Shown here piece by piece: positions 23,571 through 64,000 of a DNA stretch of 64,000 nucleotides (the first letter of the stretch is position 1; each line of letters opens with the position of its first letter). Source of the stretch: Escherichia coli (GTDB lineage: Bacteria; Pseudomonadota; Gammaproteobacteria; Enterobacterales; Enterobacteriaceae). The translations under genes were made by a program, and so were the position numbers. The notes beneath the pieces were generated by a model. That model was not told the DNA's origin, did not search any database, and saw only the letters and a list, made by a program, of their open reading frames with translations. The stretch is taken from the NCBI RefSeq assembly GCF_024298765.1, contig NZ_CP101210.1; one strand, given 5' to 3'.

Positions 23571-24866
23571 TTAATTTTTCATTGCTTCGTTATGGGGCAT
23601 GGTTGGGGCAAACTCGCTTAACTGTGTATTTAACAAAGCTACCTGTGCATTATTGTTTTCAGACATCCATTTTCCGTATACCTGAAATACCATTTGCGCA
23701 TCTGCATGGCCCATCTGGTTTGCTATAAATGCCGGGTTAGCACCAGCTGTCAGCGACCAGCAGGCATAAGTATGTCTCGACTGATATGATTTTCGATGGC
23801 GGAGTCCGGCACGTTTTATCGCTGCGTCCCACATCTGCCTTATTGAGTCAACGGTAAAATGGTCACCATAATTTTTTACTCTCGCTGACACTTCAGGTTG
23901 AAAAACAAAGGTGCATTTTTGTTTTTCTGTTCTGCCATACTCTCTGAGGTGAACATCAATGATATGCTCTTTGCTCAGTCTCGTTAATGTCATCTGACTC
24001 CGGAGAGCGTCGATTGCTGGCTTAATAAGATGAATGACCCGATTGGTTCCCGCCTGTGTTTTTGGTACCGTGAAACGGTCTTTTGCTAAATTTCTCCTGA
24101 TCATCATTGTTCCATTTTTCAGATCTATGTCCTCCCATCCAAGTGCACACAGCTCACCAGGGCGAACGCCAGTATAAACAGAAACACACCATAAATTTTT
24201 TGCTTGCTGATTTCTGCACGCATCGATAAGACGGATAAATTCCTCCCGCGAAAGAGGATCCGGAATGGTTCTTGATTCCTTTAATGGCGAGATCCCCTTA
24301 AACGGATTATCTGGCAGGTAACCGTTATCAACACCAAACTGGAACACGGCGTTAAGATTTGTCATGTAATTATTTACAGTTACAGCCGATCTCCCTGGTT
24401 GTGTAACAATATAGTTACTTTTGGGGATCTGGTATCCAGTCAGTAGCTCTTTACGAACCTCCAGTAATTTTTCTTTATTAATCGATGAGGCAAGATTTTT
24501 TTCACCGATTATGCTCAGGATATTTTTGATGACGGCACGGTATGTGTTGAGTGATGTTTTGGCGACTTCAGTTTCTTTCAGTGCCAGAAATTTTTCAGCC
24601 AGTTCTTTTATGGTTAAATCTTGTCGGGCCTCACCAAATTTTTCCAGATTGCGTGAGGAGGGAAACTGTTTTGCATAGTCGAAAACACCAGTTTTTATTG
24701 CGTAACAAACAGAGGAGCGTAGTTCACCTGCAACGCGCCTGTTTTTTGCTGTGTCAGGAACCCCCAGATTTTCCCTGACTCTTACGCCTTTATAAACAAA
24801 CCAGATACGTAATTTCCCTCCATGGTTTTCCACGCCTGTCGGATATTTCATTTCAACTTCTCTCAT
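23571..24866 (-). CDS. intQ: Phage tyrosine integrase (431 aa; possible alternative start at 24851)
   Basis: C-terminal catalytic region with RHTYACW...GH and tyrosine-recombinase R/H/Y spacing; gene ends at the host junction. Confidence 0.9.
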   Translation of the reverse strand: MREVEMKYPTGVENHGGKLRIWFVYKGVRVRENLGVPDTAKNRRVAGELRSSVCYAIKTGVFDYAKQFPSSRNLEKFGEARQDLTIKELAEKFLALKETEVAKTSLNTYRAVIKNILSIIGEKNLASSINKEKLLEVRKELLTGYQIPKSNYIVTQPGRSAVTVNNYMTNLNAVFQFGVDNGYLPDNPFKGISPLKESRTIPDPLSREEFIRLIDACRNQQAKNLWCVSVYTGVRPGELCALGWEDIDLKNGTMMIRRNLAKDRFTVPKTQAGTNRVIHLIKPAIDALRSQMTLTRLSKEHIIDVHLREYGRTEKQKCTFVFQPEVSARVKNYGDHFTVDSIRQMWDAAIKRAGLRHRKSYQSRHTYACWSLTAGANPAFIANQMGHADAQMVFQVYGKWMSENNNAQVALLNTQLSEFAPTMPHNEAMKN

Positions 24867-28320: not shown

Positions 28321-28378
28321 AAAAACGGCGGCAGAGCAGTCACGGAGTAAAACTGATACCGCCAAACGTCACCAGAAA
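28321..28378 (-). ncRNA. dicF: DicF small RNA
   Basis: Reverse complement of 28327-28378 reads TTTCTGGTGACGTTTGGCGGTATCAGTTTTACTCCGTGACTGCTCTGCCGCC, the recalled DicF sequence, ending in a GGCGG/CCGCC hairpin and U-tract. Confidence 0.85.
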
Positions 28379-31727: not shown

Positions 31728-32129
31728 GTGGCAAAAGTTTTTACACAAGAAGAGCGGGAAAAAATTAAAGGGCAGGTTGTTGAACTCGTACGCCGGAGTG
31801 GGCGTGAGACGTTACGGCAACTGGAAGTCAAGACAGGTGCGACAAGATATCTGATGAGCGTTCTCGCAAGAGAGCTGGTTGCCAGCGGCGATGTATACAA
31901 CTCTGGTTACGGGTTATTCCCGTCTGAACAGGCGCGTAAGGACTGGCAAAATGCCCGTAAAAAGCTCTCAAGGGCAAAGCTGAAGAAACCATCTGCGGTT
32001 GATCCGGACCTTATCTGGTCATTACCTGACGGAGAAATACGTCGCTACGACAGGCGTCAGAACATAATCTGCCGCGAGTGCCGGAAGAGTGAAGTTATGC
32101 AGCGCATACTGGCATTTTATCAGGGATAA
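31728..32129 (+). CDS. Hypothetical basic protein (133 aa), GTG start
   Basis: GTG preceded by AAGGGGGA RBS; C-terminal CxxC; no family recognised. Confidence 0.45.
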   Translation: MAKVFTQEEREKIKGQVVELVRRSGRETLRQLEVKTGATRYLMSVLARELVASGDVYNSGYGLFPSEQARKDWQNARKKLSRAKLKKPSAVDPDLIWSLPDGEIRRYDRRQNIICRECRKSEVMQRILAFYQG

Positions 32130-32662
32130 TGTTAGATATTTTAGACGTTACTAGATTAAAAAGCATTAGTTCAGGAGTGAATTGACATTCTCATTTTTCA
32201 TGGCACAGGGTAGATCTGGCGTGGTTGTCCGCTTTGTGCCAACAGCGGACGTTACTAACGAAACTGTGAGTTAAAAACGGGAGCTGGTCACCTCCATCCC
32301 GCGAAATGGAATTCAAAAATGCCCTCATGTACGGTACTTCTAGTCTGATGTGAGCATTTTCGTGGATTTTTTCGAGCCACTCCAACGAATGATTACATTC
32401 AGTTTCGGGCACTAAAACGTCATAAATCCGCAAGTTGAGGAGTAGCGATCAGCCAATTGGTTAAAAAACAGCTTTAATTCCCTTTTTCAAGCAGGCTCCT
32501 TGTCGCACGTCTGGTGCATCCAATTCATTTCAGTTACCCTGATGCCATACTGGCACGGACTAGCTCTCTTAATTGGCGCTGGTTTGTTAACCTTGTCCGC
32601 TGTCGGGTCTTTGTAAGTTGTAATTCCTAAACTAGCATAATTTTATTATAAGGCCTCTTACT

Positions 32663-33688
32663 ATGCACATTTTATCTGTTTCAAAAAAGGAAGTTGGAAG
32701 AGCTGGGGATAGATTAGTTTCTCAGTTTGGTACAGGTGAAAAATATAAAGAGGAAGATGTACAAATTCTTCATGAGTGGAGGATGTTGCATTTATATCCT
32801 TTAAGTAAAATACAATTTTATATGGAAAGAGAGGCTATTTCCTTAAACAAAAATGCGTTACTATCCTCTAGAATTAAGAGGATGCCTTCCATTGTTACTA
32901 AGCTTTCTAGATTTCCTGATATGAAGTTAAATAAGATGCAGGATCTTGGTGGGTGCCGGGCTATTTTAAATAATCTGGATCAAGTGTATGATTTAGTTAA
33001 TAAAATAAAATCATCTAAATTCTCACATGAACTAGTTAGAATGGATGATTACATGATAGACGTGAAAGATTCTGGTTATAGAAGCTTTCATATGGTCTAT
33101 TCATTCCAAAATAAAAAATTTCCATCTTTAAATGGGTTGCGCATTGAAATGCAAATAAGAACAGCTATTCAACATAGCTGGGCTACAGCAGTTGAAATGG
33201 TTGGTTTGTTTCGAAAGGAATCATTGAAATCTGGTTTTGGTGATGCAAGATGGCTTAGGTTTTTTGAATTGGTATCAGAGCTTTTTTATAAACTTGAGTA
33301 TGAAAAAGAACCATCTGGGAGTTATATAAAAATATCAGAAGAATTAAGTTATTTATCCGTCGAGTTGAATGTTTTCGATATATTAGCTGCTTACAATGCC
33401 GTAGTTAGCCATATTGAGGGTAGCAAAAAATATGATAAAGGACTTTGCATAATTGTTGTTGATACCATAAAGCGGAATATAAATATAAAGAGCTTCGAAA
33501 ATCACAATCATGCGAAGGCGGCAGAAGCTTATGTCGAGTCTGAAAAATACTGCGCGGAAAATAAAGGCTGTGAAGTGGCTATGGTTTCTGTTAGTTCAAT
33601 TAGTGAATTAAAAAATGCATATCCTGCTTACTTTTTAGATACGAAAACTTTTTTAAATTATCTCAGTAGGTATGTTTTTATAAAATAA
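32663..33688 (+). CDS. RelA/SpoT-homologue synthetase-domain protein (341 aa); candidate fused toxSAS toxin-antitoxin
   Basis: All four synthetase motifs present: RIKRMPSIVTK (RxKxxxSxxxK), DLGGCR (DxxGxR), GYRSFH, EMQIRTAIQHSWA (ExQIRT...W). About 130-aa C-terminal extension, no adjacent partner ORF, and much lower GC than the flanks. Confidence 0.75.
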   Translation: MHILSVSKKEVGRAGDRLVSQFGTGEKYKEEDVQILHEWRMLHLYPLSKIQFYMEREAISLNKNALLSSRIKRMPSIVTKLSRFPDMKLNKMQDLGGCRAILNNLDQVYDLVNKIKSSKFSHELVRMDDYMIDVKDSGYRSFHMVYSFQNKKFPSLNGLRIEMQIRTAIQHSWATAVEMVGLFRKESLKSGFGDARWLRFFELVSELFYKLEYEKEPSGSYIKISEELSYLSVELNVFDILAAYNAVVSHIEGSKKYDKGLCIIVVDTIKRNINIKSFENHNHAKAAEAYVESEKYCAENKGCEVAMVSVSSISELKNAYPAYFLDTKTFLNYLSRYVFIK

Positions 33689-34121
33689 AAAATGTTATCT
33701 GGAGTGGTCTGAATTCTACTAACTTAGTTTTTTCAGACCGCTTCTGACCACAATGGCCTGTGAGGTTCTGCTGCTAGTCAACATAAAATAACAAAGCCGG
33801 CAGGTGGTGGTTGTTGTAAAGTTATTCAATGACATTCATGGAGGCTTAAGCGAATTATTTGTCCCTGGTCGGTATGGTGGCAACAGCTTGTTGCGAGAAT
33901 TTGGCTAATTTGGACTGACTTCCGCTCCTTGCTCAAAGCGGACTAGAAGGTTAGCTTGTGTCGGACTTTGCGTATTAAAAGAAGTGCTGGTGGTGACTAG
34001 TGGTTGAGCCCCATTTCCACAGAAAAAATCAGAGAAACTATACCCAATAGTTGTATTGAATCACTGACGAGACAGCCTCATATTCATCAGGACTGGTGTA
34101 CGTCCAATACAGGAGGTTGTG

Positions 34122-34211: not shown

Positions 34212-34422
34212 TTTCATATTGGCGAGGTAAAGGTAGTTAAGTAGAATGGCTGCGGGTGCTTGAGGCTATCTGCCTCGGGCATGAACACCAAAGGCAGATA
34301 GAGAAAAGCCCCAGTTAACATTACGCGTCCTGCAAGACGCTTAACATTAATCTGAGGCCAATTTCATGCTAGACACATGTAGGTTAGCCTCTTACGTGCC
34401 GGAAGGCAAGGAGAAGCAGGCT

Positions 34423-34578
34423 ATGAAGCAGCAAAAGGCGATGTTAATCGCCCTGATCGTCATCTGTTTAACCGTCATAGTGACGGCACTGGTAACGAGG
34501 AAAGACCTCTGCGAGGTACGAATCCGAACCGGCCAGACGGAGGTCGCTGTCTTCACAGCTTACGAACCTGAGGAGTAA
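34423..34578 (+). CDS. hokD: Hok-family type I toxin (51 aa) with overlapping mok-like frame starting at 34366
   Basis: MKQQKAMLIALIVICLTVIVTALVTRKDLCEVRIRTGQTEVAVFTAYEPEE matches recalled HokD; AAGGAGAAG RBS; upstream in-frame extension resembles mok. Confidence 0.85.
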   Translation: MKQQKAMLIALIVICLTVIVTALVTRKDLCEVRIRTGQTEVAVFTAYEPEE

Positions 34579-37573: not shown

Positions 37574-37883
37574 TTTAGGGGACAGAAAAACTCCTTAATA
37601 CTGATAACCTGGTGCACCATACACACGTTCCTGGAGAAAACTACTTTTTTGATAGGGTTGAAGGTGGCTGGATGTCTAAAATAAACATTGCTTCATATGT
37701 TCAACTATGAGTTAATGACTGCGTCGGTTTGAAGAACAGACGATATACGAAGTAGTTTACTAAAGCAGTTCTCATTTCAGGTGTTATTCACTTATTCCTT
37801 CTTTGAGTCTCTCCAATTAAGTACGAAGTCGTTTCTGTTATGCAAACCATTTATGCCGAAAGGCTCAAGTTAAGGAATGTAGA

Positions 37884-38099
37884 ATGTCAAATAAAATGAC
37901 TGGTTTAGTAAAATGGTTTAACGCTGATAAAGGTTTCGGCTTTATTTCTCCTGTTGATGGTAGTAAAGATGTGTTTGTGCATTTTTCTGCGATTCAGAAT
38001 GATAATTATCGAACCTTATTTGAAGGTCAAAAGGTTACCTTCTCTATAGAGAGTGGTGCTAAAGGTCCTGCAGCAGTAAATGTCATCATTACTGATTAA
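37884..38099 (+). CDS. cspB: Cold-shock protein CspB (71 aa)
   Basis: [71 protein letters not shown]; long AT-rich 5' leader typical of csp genes. Confidence 0.95.
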
Positions 38100-38382
38100 A
38101 ATTCATCGCTCGTCTGTATACGATAACGAAGAAGGCTGATGCCTGAGTAGAGATACGGACAGAGTAGTGAATATTGGATCTCTTTAATAAAAAGTAAGGA
38201 GGTCCAATACATGAAACAATGGCCAGCATATTTGGCAAAATCTTAATCAGGAAAAGTATGCTAACCATTGTGGTGAAGTGCAGGTTTGCTGCATGAATAG
38301 TTTTACAGCAGAAGCTAACTGCTGGCATGGCAAAACAAAGTGCGTAAGTGGATGACTCCCACAAAAAGCACCACAATCTCAA

Positions 38383-40408: not shown

Positions 40409-40771
40409 GGTAATATTAAATCGGAACATTTACATCGCGGAATGTAAAATTTAAATAAAAAGGACTCTTCCATGAGCCAAAATTCCTGAAATCTTAAGGG
40501 TAAGATAAAAGGTCTTAATCAGAATGACACGTTTTATTAATAAATAAAGCTATTCTTTCATTGCTGTGTTTTTCTTTACAAAAGTAATCCTTGCTATGGG
40601 TGGTTAATCATGCGTTAATGGTGTTCTGGTTTGTTACAAATTTATCTGAAGCAGTCATTTTTATAATTTTATTATTTGTACCTCTTGAGATTTCCTTGTT
40701 GGTTTTTCTCTCTGATATTTTTTTTTCGGACCATTCTGCCCAAGGGCTAATTTCTTCAAAAGGTAATAATT

Positions 40772-40984
40772 ATGTCTAACAAAATGACTGGTTTAGTGAA
40801 ATGGTTTAACCCTGAAAAAGGTTTTGGTTTCATCACGCCGAAAGATGGCAGCAAAGATGTGTTTGTCCATTTCTCAGCAATTCAGAGCAACGATTTCAAA
40901 ACATTAACTGAGAATCAGGAAGTTGAATTTGGTATTGAGAACGGACCTAAAGGTCCTGCCGCTGTTCATGTAGTGGCGCTTTGA
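40772..40984 (+). CDS. cspI: Cold-shock protein CspI (70 aa)
   Basis: [70 protein letters not shown]. Confidence 0.95.
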
Positions 40985-41190
40985 GGTAGACAATATTACA
41001 AACCATATTCACTTTAGATGCCCGTGTTGTCATGGTTCCCAGTATAGAACATCATCTTTTGATGTTTCTGACATGAATCCTTTCGGGGCAAAATGTATCT
41101 TTTGTAAATCAATGATGATTACATTTGATAATATTTCACAATACTTAAATGCCAGCCGTCTGTCGTTGGATTTAAAAAAGTGAAAATGAA

Positions 41191-46159: not shown

Positions 46160-47667
46160 TGGCAATTCTTGATGATGTGATTGGCGTTTTTTCACCAGGA
46201 TGGAAAGCGGCAAGGCTGCGTTCCCGAGCGGTGATCCAGGCTTATGAGGCCGTAAAAACGACGCGGACACACAAAGCCCGACGGGAGAACCGAACTGCCG
46301 ACCAGTTAAGCCAGTACGGGGCCGTGTCGTTACGTGAGCAGGCCCGTTACCTTGATAACAACCACGATCTGGTCATTGGTGTATTTGACAAGCTGGAAGA
46401 ACGGGTGGTGGGGAAAAACGGGATTATTGTCGAGCCACATCCGGTATTACGCAATGGTGCCATTGCCCGTGACTTGGCAGCGGAGATACGTACCCGATGG
46501 AGTGAATGGTCTGTCAGTCCGGAAGTCACCGGGCAGTTTACCCGTCCGATGCTGGAACGTCTGATGCTGCGTACCTGGCTGCGCGATGGTGAGGTGTTTG
46601 CCCAGATGGTTTCCGGGCGCATAAACAGCCTGACGCCTTCTGCCGGTGTTCATTTCTGGCTGGAGGCGCTCGAGCCGGACTTTATTCCCATGACCAGTGA
46701 TGAGAGCAACAGGCTGAATCAGGGCGTGTTTGTTGATGACTGGGGGCGTCCCGAAAAATATCTGGTGTATAAAAGTCGTCCTGTATCCGGACGGCAGATG
46801 GAAACCAAAGAAGTGGATGCAGAGCGAATGCTGCATCTTAAATTTGTTCGCCGTCTGCACCAGATGCGCGGGACGTCTTTATTGTCCGGTGTGCTGATCC
46901 GCCTCAGCGCCCTGAAAGAGTATGAAGATTCTGAGCTGACTGCAGCAAGGATCGCCGCTGCTCTGGGGATGTACATCCGGAAAGGCGACGGACAGAGCTA
47001 TGAAACGGATGGTAATGACAGCAAGGAGAATGAACGCGAGCTTACCATTCAGCCAGGCATTATTTACGACGATCTGAAACCCGGCGAAGAAATCGGAATG
47101 GTGAAGTCGGATCGTCCCAATCCTAACCTTGAAACTTTTCGTAATGGTCAGTTGCGTGCCGTGGCGGCGGGCAGTCGTCTGAGTTTTTCCAGTACGGCAC
47201 GCAACTATAACGGCACTTACAGCGCCCAGCGTCAGGAACTGGTTGAGTCTACTGATGGCTACCTGATCCTGCAGGACTGGTTTATTGGTGCCGTCACCCG
47301 CCCGATGTATCGTGCATGGCTGAAACAGGCTGTGGCATCCGGTGTTATCAGGCTACCCCGCGATCTTGACCGTTCTTCACTGTATACCGCGGTGTATTCC
47401 GGACCAGTGATGCCGTGGATTGACCCTGTTAAGGAGGCTGAGGCCTGGAAAATCCAGATTCGTGGTGGAGCGGCGACAGAATCAGACTGGGTACGTGCTG
47501 GTGGTCGTAATCCGGATGATGTCAAACGTCGGCGCAAGGCCGAAATTGATGAAAACCGCAAGCTGGATCTGGTATTTGATACCGATCCGGCCAGTGATAA
47601 AGGAGGCAGCAGTGCCGCAACGAAACGACAGGAGCCGCAGCACACCGACGACCAGTCCGAAGAATAA
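46159..47667 (+). CDS. Portal protein (gpB-like, 502 aa)
   Basis: ATG overlaps the gpW stop; size and position typical of a lambda-like portal. Confidence 0.85.
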   Translation: MAILDDVIGVFSPGWKAARLRSRAVIQAYEAVKTTRTHKARRENRTADQLSQYGAVSLREQARYLDNNHDLVIGVFDKLEERVVGKNGIIVEPHPVLRNGAIARDLAAEIRTRWSEWSVSPEVTGQFTRPMLERLMLRTWLRDGEVFAQMVSGRINSLTPSAGVHFWLEALEPDFIPMTSDESNRLNQGVFVDDWGRPEKYLVYKSRPVSGRQMETKEVDAERMLHLKFVRRLHQMRGTSLLSGVLIRLSALKEYEDSELTAARIAAALGMYIRKGDGQSYETDGNDSKENERELTIQPGIIYDDLKPGEEIGMVKSDRPNPNLETFRNGQLRAVAAGSRLSFSSTARNYNGTYSAQRQELVESTDGYLILQDWFIGAVTRPMYRAWLKQAVASGVIRLPRDLDRSSLYTAVYSGPVMPWIDPVKEAEAWKIQIRGGAATESDWVRAGGRNPDDVKRRRKAEIDENRKLDLVFDTDPASDKGGSSAATKRQEPQHTDDQSEE

Positions 47668-47680
47668 TTCCTGGTTCAGG

Positions 47681-49639
47681 ATGCAGGCTGGTCACCAGAG
47701 TGACGCGGATATTTATATTTATGACGAGATTGGTTTCTGGGGTGTTACAGCGAAGCAGTTTATCAGTGATCTGAATGCACTGGGCGATATCACCCACATT
47801 AATCTCCATATTAATTCACCGGGTGGCGATGTCTTTGAAGGCATCGCCATTTTTAATGCGCTGAAAACACATGGAGCGTCCATTACCGTTTATGTCGACG
47901 GTGTGGCGGCGTCAATGGCGTCGGTCATTGCGATGGTGGGAAACCCGGTCATTATGCCGGAAAACACTTTCATGATGATTCATAAACCATTTGGCTTTAC
48001 GGGCGGTGATGCGGAGGACATGCGCACCTATGCCGACCTGCTCGATAAAGTTGAGGCGGTTCTGTTACCCGCTTATGCACAGAAAACCGGGAAAACCACC
48101 GATGAAATTGCTGCCATGCTGGCGGATGAGACCTGGATGTCCGGTGCCGAATGTCTGGCACATGGATTTGCTGATCAGGTAACGCCAGCCGTTAAGGCAA
48201 TGGCATGTATTCAGTCAAAACGTACAGAGGAATTTAAAAAGATGCCGGAATCCATTCGAAACATGATTACTCCGCCACGCAACAGTGCTCCACGCGTACA
48301 GGATGATGAACCTGCAGCCTCCCGGACGCCAGTGCAGGCAGCAGCACCCGTGGTGGATGAAAACAGTATCCGTGCGCAGGTACTGGCAGAGCAAAAAGCG
48401 CGTGTAAACGGTATTAATGATCTGTTTGCCATGTTTGGCGGGCGTTATCAGACGCTGCAGGCTCAGTGTCTTGCCGATCCTGAATGTTCGCTGGAGCAGG
48501 CCCGCGAAAAGCTGTTGAACGAGATGGGGCGCGAGTCCACGCCATCCAATAAAAATACCCCGGCTCATATTTATGCCGGTAACGGTAATTTTGTGGGGGA
48601 CGGGATCCGCCAGGCGCTGATGGCGCGTGCCGGATTTGAAAAAACCGAACGTGATAATGTCTACAACGGGATGACCCTGCGTGAATATGCCCGTATGTCA
48701 CTGACTGAACGGGGTATTGGGGTTTCCAGTTATAACCCGATGCAGATGGTCGGTGCGGCGTTCACACACAGTACGTCTGACTTCGGTAATATTCTGCTGG
48801 ATGTTGCGAACAAAGCCATTCTGCAGGGCTGGGAAGATGCTCCTGAAACCTATGAACAGTGGACGCGGAAAGGTCAGTTGTCTGATTTTAAAATTGCCCA
48901 TCGTGTGGGTATGGGGGGCTTCAGTGCTCTGCGTCAGGTGCGTGAAGGGGCGGAATATAAATACGTCACCACCGGAGATAAACAGGCCACTATTGCACTG
49001 GCGACCTATGGCGAGCTGTTCAGTATCACCCGTCAGGCCATTATCAATGATGATCTGAATATGCTGACCGATGTCCCGATGAAGCTGGGCCGTGCGGCGA
49101 AATCCACCATTGCCGATCTGGTTTATGCCATTCTGACGTCTAACCCGAAAATCTCCACAGATAATGTAAGTCTGTTCGATAAAGCGAAACATGCAAACGT
49201 ACTGGAGAGCGCTGCAATGGACGTGGCATCGCTGGATAAAGCCCGCCAGTTGATGCGCGTTCAGAAAGAGGGGGAGCGTCATCTGAATATTCGTCCTGCG
49301 TTCGTACTGGTACCGACGGCGATGGAGTCTGTTGCTAACCAGGTCATTCGCTCCTCAAGTGTCAAGGGGGCTGACATTAACGCCGGTATTATTAACCCGG
49401 TGAAAGATTTTGCGACCGTTATTGCAGAGCCTCGTCTTGATGATAACAGCCAGACCACCTTCTACCTGGCTGCGTCCAAAGGCTCCGATACGATTGAAGT
49501 GGCTTATCTCAACGGTGTGGATACGCCATATATTGATCAGATGGAGGGCTTCAGTGTGGATGGCGTGACAACGAAAGTGCGTATTGACGCCGGTGTCGCG
49601 CCAGTTGATCACCGCGGTCTGGTGAAATGTACGGCGTAA
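47681..49639 (+). CDS. Fused prohead protease (ClpP/S49-like) and HK97-fold major capsid protein (652 aa)
   Basis: N-terminal third has ClpP-like features (INSPGGDVFEGIAIFNAL, MASVIAMVGNP); C-terminal two-thirds resembles a major capsid protein. Confidence 0.78.
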   Translation: MQAGHQSDADIYIYDEIGFWGVTAKQFISDLNALGDITHINLHINSPGGDVFEGIAIFNALKTHGASITVYVDGVAASMASVIAMVGNPVIMPENTFMMIHKPFGFTGGDAEDMRTYADLLDKVEAVLLPAYAQKTGKTTDEIAAMLADETWMSGAECLAHGFADQVTPAVKAMACIQSKRTEEFKKMPESIRNMITPPRNSAPRVQDDEPAASRTPVQAAAPVVDENSIRAQVLAEQKARVNGINDLFAMFGGRYQTLQAQCLADPECSLEQAREKLLNEMGRESTPSNKNTPAHIYAGNGNFVGDGIRQALMARAGFEKTERDNVYNGMTLREYARMSLTERGIGVSSYNPMQMVGAAFTHSTSDFGNILLDVANKAILQGWEDAPETYEQWTRKGQLSDFKIAHRVGMGGFSALRQVREGAEYKYVTTGDKQATIALATYGELFSITRQAIINDDLNMLTDVPMKLGRAAKSTIADLVYAILTSNPKISTDNVSLFDKAKHANVLESAAMDVASLDKARQLMRVQKEGERHLNIRPAFVLVPTAMESVANQVIRSSSVKGADINAGIINPVKDFATVIAEPRLDDNSQTTFYLAASKGSDTIEVAYLNGVDTPYIDQMEGFSVDGVTTKVRIDAGVAPVDHRGLVKCTA

Positions 49640-62420: not shown

Positions 62421-64000
62421 ATGGCAGTAAAGATTTCAGGTGTACTGAAAGACGGCACAGGAAAACCGGTACAGAACTGCACAATCCAGCTGAAAGCAAA
62501 ACGTAACAGCACCACGGTGGTGGTGAACACGCTGGCATCTGAAAATCCGGATGAAGCCGGGCGTTACAGTATGGACGTTGAGTACGGTCAGTACAGCGTT
62601 ATTCTGTTGGTGGAGGGATTCCCGCCGTCACATGCCGGGACCATCACCGTGTATGAAGATTCTCAACCCGGTACGCTGAATGATTTTCTCGGTGCCATGA
62701 CGGAGGATGATGCCCGTCCGGAGGCACTGCGCCGTTTTGAGCTGATGGTGGAAGAGGTGGCGCGTAACGCGTCCGCAGTGGCACAGAACACGGCAGCCGC
62801 AAAGAAGTCAGCCAGCGATGCCGGCACATCTGCCCGTGAGGCGGCAACCCATGCGACTGATGCTGCAGACTCAGCACGCGCAGCCAGCACGTCAGCCGGA
62901 CAGGCCGCGTCGTCGGCTCAGTCAGCGTCTTCCAGCGCAGGAACGGCATCAGCAAAGGCCACTGAAGCGGAAAAAAGTGCTGCCGCTGCAGAGTCCTCAA
63001 AAAGCGCGGCAGCTACCAGTGCCGGTGCCGCGAAAACGTCTGAAACGAATGCTTCAGCGTCACAACAATCAGCCGCCACTTCTGCATCCACCGCGACCAC
63101 GAAAGCGTCAGAAGCAGCCACTTCAGCACGGGATGCGTCGGCCTCAAAAGAGGCAGCGAAATCATCAGAAACGAACGCAGCCTCGAGCGCCAGTAGTGCC
63201 GCTTCCTCGGCAACGGCGGCAGCAAATTCTGCGAAGGTGGCAAAAACGTCCGAGACGAACGCCAGGTCTTCTGAAACGGCAGCGGGACAGAGCGCCTCAG
63301 CTGCGGCAGGCTCAAAAACAGCGGCTGCATTATCTGCCAGTGCCGCGTCAACAAGTGCCGGGCAGGCCTCAGCCAGTGCCACCGCCGCCGGAAAATCGGC
63401 AGAAAGTGCTGCATCGTCTGCTTCAACAGCCACAACGAAGGCTGGCGAAGCCACTGAACAGGCCAGCGCAGCAGCGAGTTCTGCTTCCGCAGCGAAGACA
63501 TCCGAAACGAACGCGAAAGCGTCGGAAACCAGCGCAGAATCCTCAAAAACGGCTGCCGCATCGTCAGCCAGTTCGGCGGCGTCATCGGCATCATCTGCGT
63601 CTGCTTCAAAAGATGAGGCGACCAGACAGGCGTCAGCAGCAAAGGGCAGCGCCACGACGGCATCCACGAAGGCGACAGAGGCAGCTGGCAGTGCGACGGC
63701 GGCAGCTCAGAGCAAAAGTACGGCGGAATCCGCGGCAACGCGCGCCGAGACAGCGGCAAAACGGGCAGAGGATATTGCATCCGCCGTGGCGCTTGAGGAT
63801 GCGAGCACGACGAAAAAGGGGATAGTCCAGCTAAGCAGCGCGACCAACAGCACTTCCGAGTCACAGGCGGCAACGCCAAAAGCCGTTAAGGCCGCGTATG
63901 AGCTGGCTAACGGGAAATACACCGCACAGGATGCAACGACAGCACAGAAAGGGATAGTTCAGCTTAGCAACGCGACCAACAGCACATCTGAAATGCTGGC
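62421..64000 (+). CDS. Side tail fibre protein (Stf-like), 3' end outside window
   Basis: MAVKISGVLKDGTGKPVQNCTIQLKAKRNSTTVVVNT... matches recalled lambda Stf N-terminus; frame stays open through the Ala/Ser-rich repeat region to the window end. Confidence 0.85.
   Translation, partial: MAVKISGVLKDGTGKPVQNCTIQLKAKRNSTTVVVNTLASENPDEAGRYSMDVEYGQYSVILLVEGFPPSHAGTITVYEDSQPGTLNDFLGAMTEDDARPEALRRFELMVEEVARNASAVAQNTAAAKKSASDAGTSAREAATHATDAADSARAASTSAGQAASSAQSASSSAGTASAKATEAEKSAAAAESSKSAAATSAGAAKTSETNASASQQSAATSASTATTKASEAATSARDASASKEAAKSSETNAASSASSAASSATAAANSAKVAKTSETNARSSETAAGQSASAAAGSKTAAALSASAASTSAGQASASATAAGKSAESAASSASTATTKAGEATEQASAAASSASAAKTSETNAKASETSAESSKTAAASSASSAASSASSASASKDEATRQASAAKGSATTASTKATEAAGSATAAAQSKSTAESAATRAETAAKRAEDIASAVALEDASTTKKGIVQLSSATNSTSESQAATPKAVKAAYELANGKYTAQDATTAQKGIVQLSNATNSTSEML

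Follow-up and report, generated by a model that had tools for sequence, protein, structure and literature searches.

What does a solitary RelA/SpoT-type synthetase gene do in the middle of a lambdoid prophage? The question is raised by a 64,000-nucleotide stretch of Escherichia coli contig NZ_CP101210.1 (here called the window, in its whole length), in which an open reading frame (ORF) encoding 341 amino acids, with an ATG start, occupies positions 32663..33688 of the plus strand and is annotated in RefSeq as WP_000547812.1, 'RelA/SpoT domain-containing protein'. In our reading, to which we give a probability of roughly 80%, the gene encodes a single-polypeptide fused toxin-antitoxin of the toxic small alarmone synthetase (toxSAS) group, of the CapRel type, which would serve the lysogen as an abortive-infection defence protein. 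Classified by its sequence, the protein is a new and divergent member of the described fused-CapRel family and not a new kind of system. Neither the architecture nor the mechanism of CapRel is new, both having been in print since 2022; defence borne by prophages is an established concept, and PADLOC already flags the family.

The gene had first been picked out in a reading of the bare sequence (the original prediction), which described an ORF at 32663-33688 with RelA/SpoT motifs, devoid of the other domains of housekeeping enzymes and more AT-rich than its surroundings. These features were confirmed. All four of the motifs quoted at the time are present, RIKRMPSIVTK at residue 70, DLGGCR at 94, GYRSFH at 138 and EMQIRTAIQHSWA at 162. 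The match to a RelA/SpoT synthetase profile that was to be expected was obtained in a Pfam scan, where RelA_SpoT (PF04607) is hit at residues 69-175 with E 1.1e-17 and is the only domain found, no hydrolase, TGS or ACT domain being detected by Pfam in the 341-residue protein. The GC content of the ORF is 32.6%, as against 46.1% and 43.8% in the 10 kb of prophage on its two sides and 49.7% in the whole window. The non-coding flanks had been given as about 530 and 430 bp; the first figure stood, the upstream gap being 533 bp (32130-32662), but the second did not, since 565 bp separate the gene from the sok/hok RNA locus and 734 bp from the hokD ATG (34423). The window is collinear with the chromosome of E. 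coli strain 104 (NZ_CP029164.1) at 99.5-99.98% identity, and WP_000547812.1 is annotated there as well.

The protein and the fused-CapRel family

In a phmmer search of the PDB the best match of the protein is CapRel-SJ46 (7ZTB/9ERV), with E 2.6e-34 over residues 6-338 of 341; the BLASTP alignment of the two proteins runs over the full length at 28% identity (E 5e-40). The PADLOC model PDC-S33, listed as a candidate system, is matched even more strongly (E 5e-119, 395.7 bits, residues 4-338 of 341). Since CapRel-SJ46 matches the same model (E 7e-87, 290.1 bits), PDC-S33 can be equated with the fused-CapRel family. Among phage protein families, PHROG 4773, annotated as 'unknown function', matches the 341-residue protein with E 5e-134.

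Separate searches with the two parts of the protein, proposed with the original prediction, both lead to the same relative. The N-terminal toxin (toxSYNTH) domain comprises residues 1-190 (32663..33232, plus strand) and includes the Pfam RelA_SpoT part at 32867-33187 (residues 69-175). Searched alone against the PDB, it matches CapRel-SJ46 residues 14-205 with E 5e-27, followed by the small alarmone synthetases (SAS) RelQ and RelP at about 1e-10, and it also matches Phrann gp29 (E 5e-6). It is basic, with an isoelectric point (pI) of 9.7, compared to 9.6 for the toxin domain of SJ46. The C-terminal antitoxin/sensor domain, assigned by homology to the CapRel antitoxin domain, comprises residues 191-341 (33233..33685, plus strand). 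In a single-sequence search with this part, CapRel-SJ46 is the sole PDB match, and a weak one (E 0.0027). An earlier profile that contained SJ46 was circular and was disregarded; a profile of this domain (the last 150 residues), made from 20 relatives with SJ46 left out, recovers SJ46 209-369 from end to end (E 4e-17), and nothing else in the PDB is significant. The C-terminal extension of the original prediction is therefore upheld, with the correction that it measures about 150 residues (191-341) and not about 130.

Within this alignment, Arg70 (32870..32872, plus strand) corresponds to R79 of SJ46 and Arg99 (32957-32959, plus strand) to R116, as seen in the pairwise alignment; both are invariant in the 42 members of the family alignment. 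R79 and R116 coordinate ATP in CapRel-SJ46 (PMC9712102). Tyr139 (33077..33079, plus strand), the catalytic tyrosine of the G-loop, is equally invariant (42/42) and aligns with Y155 of SJ46, whose replacement by alanine abolishes CapRel-SJ46 function (PMC9712102), and with Y153 of CapRel-Ebc. The YXXY motif Y320-P-A-Y323 (33620..33631, plus strand; AYPAYF aligned with AYPNYF) takes the place of Y352-P-N-Y355, where Y352A and Y355A render CapRel-SJ46 constitutively toxic (PMC9712102). Y320 and P321 are invariant in the family, and position 323 is occupied by tyrosine in 38 of the 42 members and by phenylalanine in the other four. Going by these alignments, every functionally tested residue of CapRel-SJ46 (R79, R116, Y155 and YXXY) has a kept counterpart in the window protein.

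An AlphaFold2 model was computed from the 42-member family alignment (predicted local distance difference test, pLDDT, 89.6; predicted template modelling score, pTM, 0.87). In this model the catalytic domain is followed by three helices and then by a beta-beta-alpha-beta unit at residues 260-310 (strands 260-267 and 272-278, helix 283-299, strand 303-310), which fits the published description of the pseudo-zinc-finger domain, and a short helix at 321-324 lies over the YXXY motif. The C-terminal domain can be divided accordingly into anchor-1 helices (about 195-246), the pseudo-zinc-finger-like beta-beta-alpha-beta unit (about 260-310) and anchor-2 helices. Foldseek comparison to the PDB ranks CapRel chains first (E about 1e-19, template modelling (TM) score 0.69 over about 350 columns), and the remaining matches cover the catalytic domain only; with the RelQ/RelP core the TM score is about 0.4 when normalised to the query and 0.65-0.75 when normalised to the target. 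The model and the open crystal form differ by a root-mean-square deviation of about 10 Å (at TM 0.69), which would suit a closed conformation of the model without proving it. Homology to SJ46 over the full length, separate homology of the C-terminal domain, conserved residues and predicted fold all support the original proposal of a CapRel-class toxSAS with its antitoxin domain fused at the C-terminus.

The organisation of CapRel-SJ46, from Salmonella phage SJ46, is the same as that found here: a toxSYNTH domain, anchor helices, a pseudo-zinc-finger and a YXXY switch are joined in one polypeptide, which is prophage-borne, has no partner gene and matches PDC-S33. The window protein is 32 residues shorter; an insertion of about nine residues that precedes the second strand in SJ46 is missing from it, and the loop of its pseudo-zinc-finger is shorter. 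Its host element is a lambdoid prophage, whereas that of SJ46 is a P1-like (Punavirus) phage. CapRel-Ebc of Enterobacter chengduensis belongs to the same family, within the SJ46 clade, and has the same catalytic tyrosine (Y153). The bipartite tRNA-targeting toxSAS PhRel/ATphRel (mycobacteriophage Phrann gp29/gp30) and FaRel2/ATfaRel2 have the toxSYNTH fold in common with the window protein, but in these pairs the donor site is neutralised by a YXXY-bearing zinc-finger-like antitoxin encoded by a separate gene, while here this element is fused. A bipartite pair of the FaRel2, PhRel or split-CapRel kind was rejected for the window, there being no adjacent antitoxin gene. RelQ and RelP (YjbM/YwaC) have the catalytic core in common too, but they are tetrameric housekeeping (p)ppGpp synthetases of about 200 residues with no antitoxin domain. 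A housekeeping SAS of this type was rejected on the NCBIfam YjbM score (57.6 bits against a cut-off of 320) and the extra 150-residue domain, and a long housekeeping RelA/SpoT homologue on the presence of RelA_SpoT only and a PRK10872 score of 21.9 bits against an NCBIfam cut-off of 728.

Relatives at 57-97% identity were found in Escherichia, Serratia, Pectobacterium, Yersinia, Klebsiella, Buttiauxella and Aeromonas, relatives at 44-48% in Vibrio, and relatives at 35-42% in Nostoc, Burkholderia, Achromobacter, Cupriavidus and many metagenomes. CapRel-SJ46 is an outlier in the alignment, with 29-35% identity to all other family members aligned, while SJ46 and Ebc share 70% identity (PMC13423816). 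For this reason the window protein is placed, as far as identities can tell, in a clade without a characterised member, 28-35% identical to the characterised SJ46, Ebc and Kp proteins, which are themselves mutually close. The original prediction had hesitated between a described CapRel subfamily and a new one, and both sides hold in part: the family, PDC-S33, is a described one, yet the clade stands at this distance from the characterised proteins. No mention of WP_000547812.1 or of PDC-S33 was found in the literature searched. The C-terminal-domain profile matches 3,231 clusters at 50% identity, 2,317 of them at E 1e-10 or better. The best 150 clusters are mostly 340-375 residues long with the domain at about 190-340, which makes the fused architecture the norm; shorter profile matches are indistinguishable from fragments off short metagenomic contigs.

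Several observations weigh against our reading. The identity to characterised CapRel proteins is only 28%. The two C-terminal domains differ in charge, the one here being acidic (pI 5.7) and that of SJ46 basic (pI 9.2), and this points to another binding partner. At interface or scaffold positions, V338, L339 and A341 of SJ46 are replaced by A, M and S, all conservative changes. Finally, a standard promoter and terminator scan returned no promoter-like site upstream of the gene, so that expression in the lysogen can only be presumed; a relaxed scan gives one weak promoter candidate (TTGTAA, 19-nt spacer, CATAAT; 32611..32641, plus strand) ending 22 nt before the ATG, which does not amount to functional evidence.

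The slot between the DUF977 gene and hok/sok

The location of the gene provides a second line of evidence. Its left neighbour is a conserved DUF977 gene (31728..32129, plus strand, from the ORF and the RefSeq annotation), and its right neighbour, conserved as well, is a complete hok/sok locus (34254..34578, plus strand) with sok (Rfam RF01794, 117 bits, 34254-34428), the mok leader and hokD (34423-34578). Comparison with prophages sharing these flanks delimits a cargo cassette of about 1.67 kb (32251..33919), made up of the gene with some 410 bp in front of it and some 230 bp behind it; similarity to prophages with other cargo ends at 32253-32259 and restarts at 33921. Of 5,426 complete E. coli genomes, 40 carry the gene, and the 409 bp upstream of it occur only in the same 40 genomes, at an identity of at least 99.3%. 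Many of the carriers listed are chicken or turkey isolates. One carrier, NZ_CM142782.1 (strain GPEC1258), has an IS903B inserted in the interval corresponding to 32130-33720.

A repeat scan revealed a 24-nt hairpin at either boundary of the cassette. The left one, GTCCGCT-TTGTGCCAAC-AGCGGAC (32227..32250), lies at the cassette junction; the right one, TTCCGCT-CCTTGCTCAA-AGCGGAC (33920..33943), is followed by the conserved TAGAAGGTTAGCTTG. Both have the same 7-bp stem (GTCCGCT/AGCGGAC) and loops of 10 nt, they are identical at 17 of 24 positions in direct register, and they are the sole two copies of the element in the 64-kb window when up to one mismatch is allowed. A third GTCCGCT heptamer, equal to the 5' arm of the hairpin, is found within the cassette at 32595-32601, about 60 nt before the start codon; this copy may be due to chance.

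In other E. coli prophages the same pair of hairpins encloses unrelated cargo. When viral contigs were scanned for the right element 71 loci were recovered, 49 of which have the left element within 8 kb, and these 49 loci carry 22 distinct cargo types of 0.8-5.9 kb. The inner arms of the hairpins, which were outside the search patterns used, mostly keep at least six of the seven stem pairs (in 18 of the 22 elements on the left and in 20 of the 22 on the right), and the cargo ends tend towards a 10-bp inverted repeat, AGCGGAC-RTT ... AAY-GTCCGCT. Twelve of the 22 cargo types have PADLOC matches: PD-T7-1 (in two versions), PD-T7-3, AbiH-like, SIR2/ThsA-like with a deaminase, PDC-S06, PDC-S15 (FRG domain), PDC-S39 (two types), Hp2/Hp3, DUF262/NsnA-like and PDC-S33, the last being the CapRel cassette. 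Two of these, PD-T7-1 and PD-T7-3, have been validated by experiment (bioRxiv 10.1101/2022.05.12.491691). For the other ten cargo types no PADLOC match was obtained among the cargo ORFs screened; they include a 269-residue Cys-rich protein, a 340-residue protein, a pair of 417 and 379 residues and a HAD and NUDIX pair. Judged by its contents, the DUF977-hok/sok slot in Qin/Rac-like lambdoid prophages acts as a defence hotspot, and this context lends independent support to a defence role of the gene. The low GC content of the gene and its moron-like placement are in keeping with our reading as well. Searching the literature, we found no description of a DUF977-hok hotspot, which is not proof of novelty; according to a survey of hok loci, hok is not generally enriched in the vicinity of defence systems.

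The hairpins are only moderately stable (-13.4 and -7.8 kcal/mol, z-scores -2.1 and -1.2), which is unremarkable. A role as intrinsic terminators was rejected, as neither is followed by a T-run. An artificial query joining the left and right sides at a single hairpin found no empty slot in the 5,426 E. coli genomes, the nearest to it being a locus with 224 bp of filler between the two hairpins, and this absence argues against a simple model of insertion and excision. On the simplest reading, the hairpins belong to the backbone and are under selection, and the DNA between them is exchanged by ordinary homologous recombination within the conserved sequences on either side. That they mark a dedicated cassette-exchange site, by which single defence genes would be swapped between Qin/Rac-like lambdoid prophages, is a possibility we put forward tentatively and consider rather doubtful.

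Proposed mechanism and alternative explanations

By homology to CapRel-SJ46 and CapRel-Ebc, the C-terminal domain would in the uninfected cell be folded onto the RelA/SpoT-type pyrophosphokinase domain, with the YXXY motif (Y320/Y323) sitting between R70 and R99 and thereby blocking the ATP, or pyrophosphate-donor, site. On infection the pseudo-zinc-finger/anchor region would be bound by a protein of the phage, perhaps jointly with one of the host, and the molecule would be held open. The freed enzyme would then move pyrophosphate from ATP onto the 3' CCA end of tRNAs, translation would halt and the infecting phage would be unable to finish its cycle. We infer toxicity, autoinhibition, the tRNA substrate, the defence phenotype and the phage-protein trigger alike from homology.

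A prediction of the trigger is out of reach, as conservation is lowest in the sensor region and even close homologues sense unrelated proteins. Among distant relatives the mean identity to the window protein is 51% in the catalytic core, 44% in the surroundings of YXXY and 22% in the pseudo-zinc-finger, the same pattern as published for CapRel, where the sensor region is least conserved. CapRel-SJ46 senses the major capsid protein of SECphi27-type phages and the small protein Gp54 of Bas11 (PMC9712102, PMC11578894). CapRel-Ebc, 70% identical to SJ46, instead senses T7 Gp0.4 in complex with host FtsZ (PMC13423816), so triggers are not transferable between homologues.

As for the substrate, a fused toxSAS might also make a toxic alarmone, (pp)pApp or (p)ppGpp, and act by depleting ATP and GTP instead of modifying tRNA. 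Nucleotide-making toxSAS do exist (FaRel and Tas1 for (pp)pApp, GRel/Pag1B of PANGU for pppGpp), the catalytic core is common to the (p)ppGpp-making RelP and RelQ, and a switch in acceptor specificity is possible at 28% identity. We nevertheless regard this as unlikely and favour tRNA, because the closest characterised relatives by far are tRNA pyrophosphokinases (the toxin domain gives E 5e-27 with these and about 1e-10 with SAS), because the toxin domain is basic, and because the YXXY donor-site lock is kept; neutralisation at the donor site by YXXY is reported as specific to tRNA-targeting toxSAS, the nucleotide-making ones being blocked at the acceptor site (PMC11782079). Somewhat less probable again is that the gene has nothing to do with defence, and is either an addiction-type module stabilising the prophage or an inactive, unexpressed passenger. 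A single polypeptide holding toxin and antitoxin could presumably not bring about post-segregational killing by differential stability, the functional residues are all intact, conservation within the family spans the whole protein and reaches across phyla, and the slot is populated by validated defence systems; on the other side stand the lack of a clear promoter upstream, the vicinity of hok/sok, which is a classic maintenance module, and the near-clonality of the cassette (at least 99.3% identical in 40 genomes), by which purifying selection within E. coli is not measurable.

The fused CapRel-type protein of our reading would need no further gene, and control in trans by an unrecognised partner, be it an antitoxin encoded in the flanks (as a small ORF or an RNA) or a separate activator as in PANGU, seems to us very improbable. 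It is suggested by the roughly 410 bp of unexplained DNA which travel with the gene on its upstream side and hold small ORFs of 30-80 residues. However, the RefSeq annotation has no gene besides WP_000547812.1 from the DUF977 gene to hokD, and hence none in the upstream gap, the small flanking ORFs have no significant PHROG family match, and an Rfam scan of the cassette gives nothing inside it, sok falling outside. DNA similarity of the window to homologue loci in other species is limited to the coding sequence, the flanks not being shared, and there is no conserved neighbour gene across the seven homologue families examined. A hidden antitoxin ORF or RNA was rejected on these grounds, and the absence of a partner ORF or canonical adjacent antitoxin gene, as originally claimed, was borne out by annotation, small ORFs and homologue loci alike. 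PANGU type I (the nucleoid protein Pag1A and GRel, Pag1B) resembles the window protein as a phage-defence toxSAS with a C-terminal regulatory domain. It is a two-gene system which makes pppGpp, in which the C-terminal domain is an acidic DNA mimic and not an antitoxin and the partner is an activator (bioRxiv 10.64898/2026.04.06.716658). PANGU depends on an adjacent nucleoid-protein gene, and its C-terminal domain has no relation to the antitoxin domain of CapRel. In the window the partner gene is missing and the C-terminal domain is a homologue of that antitoxin domain, and an assignment to PANGU/GRel was rejected.

The prophage, the homologue loci and the unexplored clade

The gene is carried by a Qin-like lambdoid prophage, whose integrase gene lies 188 bp past the end of rspB. 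The prophage extends from about 23571 (integrase, 23571-24851) to beyond position 64000, its tail-fibre gene running past the end of the window, and it appears structurally complete. In order, it contains the integrase, xis, exo, dicB, DicF, repressor/cro-like genes, YdaT, replication genes, the DUF977 gene and the CapRel gene; after these come hok/sok, rem, ydfU, the Q antiterminator, lysis genes, terminase, portal, a ClpP-capsid fusion, tail genes, J, Lom and the tail fibre. The major capsid protein is this fusion of a ClpP protease and a capsid protein (about 47612-49639), and the resident CapRel must not be triggered by the prophage's own capsid protein. The DicF small RNA is encoded at 28326-28377 on the minus strand, with dicB nearby; the window prophage has division inhibitors of its own, and the trigger of CapRel-Ebc is a phage FtsZ inhibitor bound to FtsZ. 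Two cspA-type thermoregulator leaders (37723-38146 and 40625-41011, both plus strand) are situated upstream of the cold-shock genes cspB and cspI.

For K-12 Qin, the original prediction placed relBE at the equivalent position and supposed that one toxin-antitoxin cargo had been swapped for another. relBE does lie directly upstream of hokD in K-12, but a one-for-one exchange of cargo is not what the comparison gives. Similarity to K-12 Qin does not set in again until 34409, 14 nt short of the hokD ATG, and K-12 consequently lacks both the sok/mok leader and the DUF977 gene. From this alignment, relBE in K-12 Qin is seen to replace the sok/mok regulatory region that is intact here.

The surroundings of the homologues in Serratia, Pectobacterium, Vibrio, another E. 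coli prophage and two metagenomic contigs are mutually unrelated. In Serratia the homologue is part of a chromosomal island and adjoins three tandem dCTP-deaminase-family (DCD) genes and an HxsD/radical-SAM pair (loci L009-L011, 5202-7030), a locus that may be a small defence island. The Pectobacterium homologue is located in an integrative island next to AbiEii. In Vibrio a homologue of 45% identity (L016-L018, 4001-5017) lies on a 1.39-Mb replicon in a series of short genes, all on one strand and with DUF645 proteins among their products, which looks like an integron cassette array. A paralogue 65% identical to the window protein (L012-L015, 4001-5017) occurs in other E. coli lambdoid prophages, on the opposite strand, in the moron slot between the Q antiterminator and the holin.

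CapRel proteins are among the best-understood bacterial immune proteins that directly recognise a phage protein. Those characterised so far (SJ46, Ebc and Kp) form one tight clade, whose members already sense three unrelated triggers. The window protein stands for a much larger part of the family (more than 3,000 sensor-domain clusters at 50% identity), and as a homologue native to E. coli, for which phage panels and genetics are at hand, it is a good experimental entry to an unexplored CapRel clade. With its trigger in hand, the generality of the open/closed YXXY switch could be tested, along with the range of what such sensor domains recognise. The DUF977-hok/sok slot, for its part, is a practical place for finding more single-gene defence systems in lambdoid prophages. 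Should the slot prove to be a dedicated exchange site, the CapRel homologue would be one cassette of a structured, hairpin-delimited defence hotspot, and its clade would probably supply a sensor domain with a new trigger.

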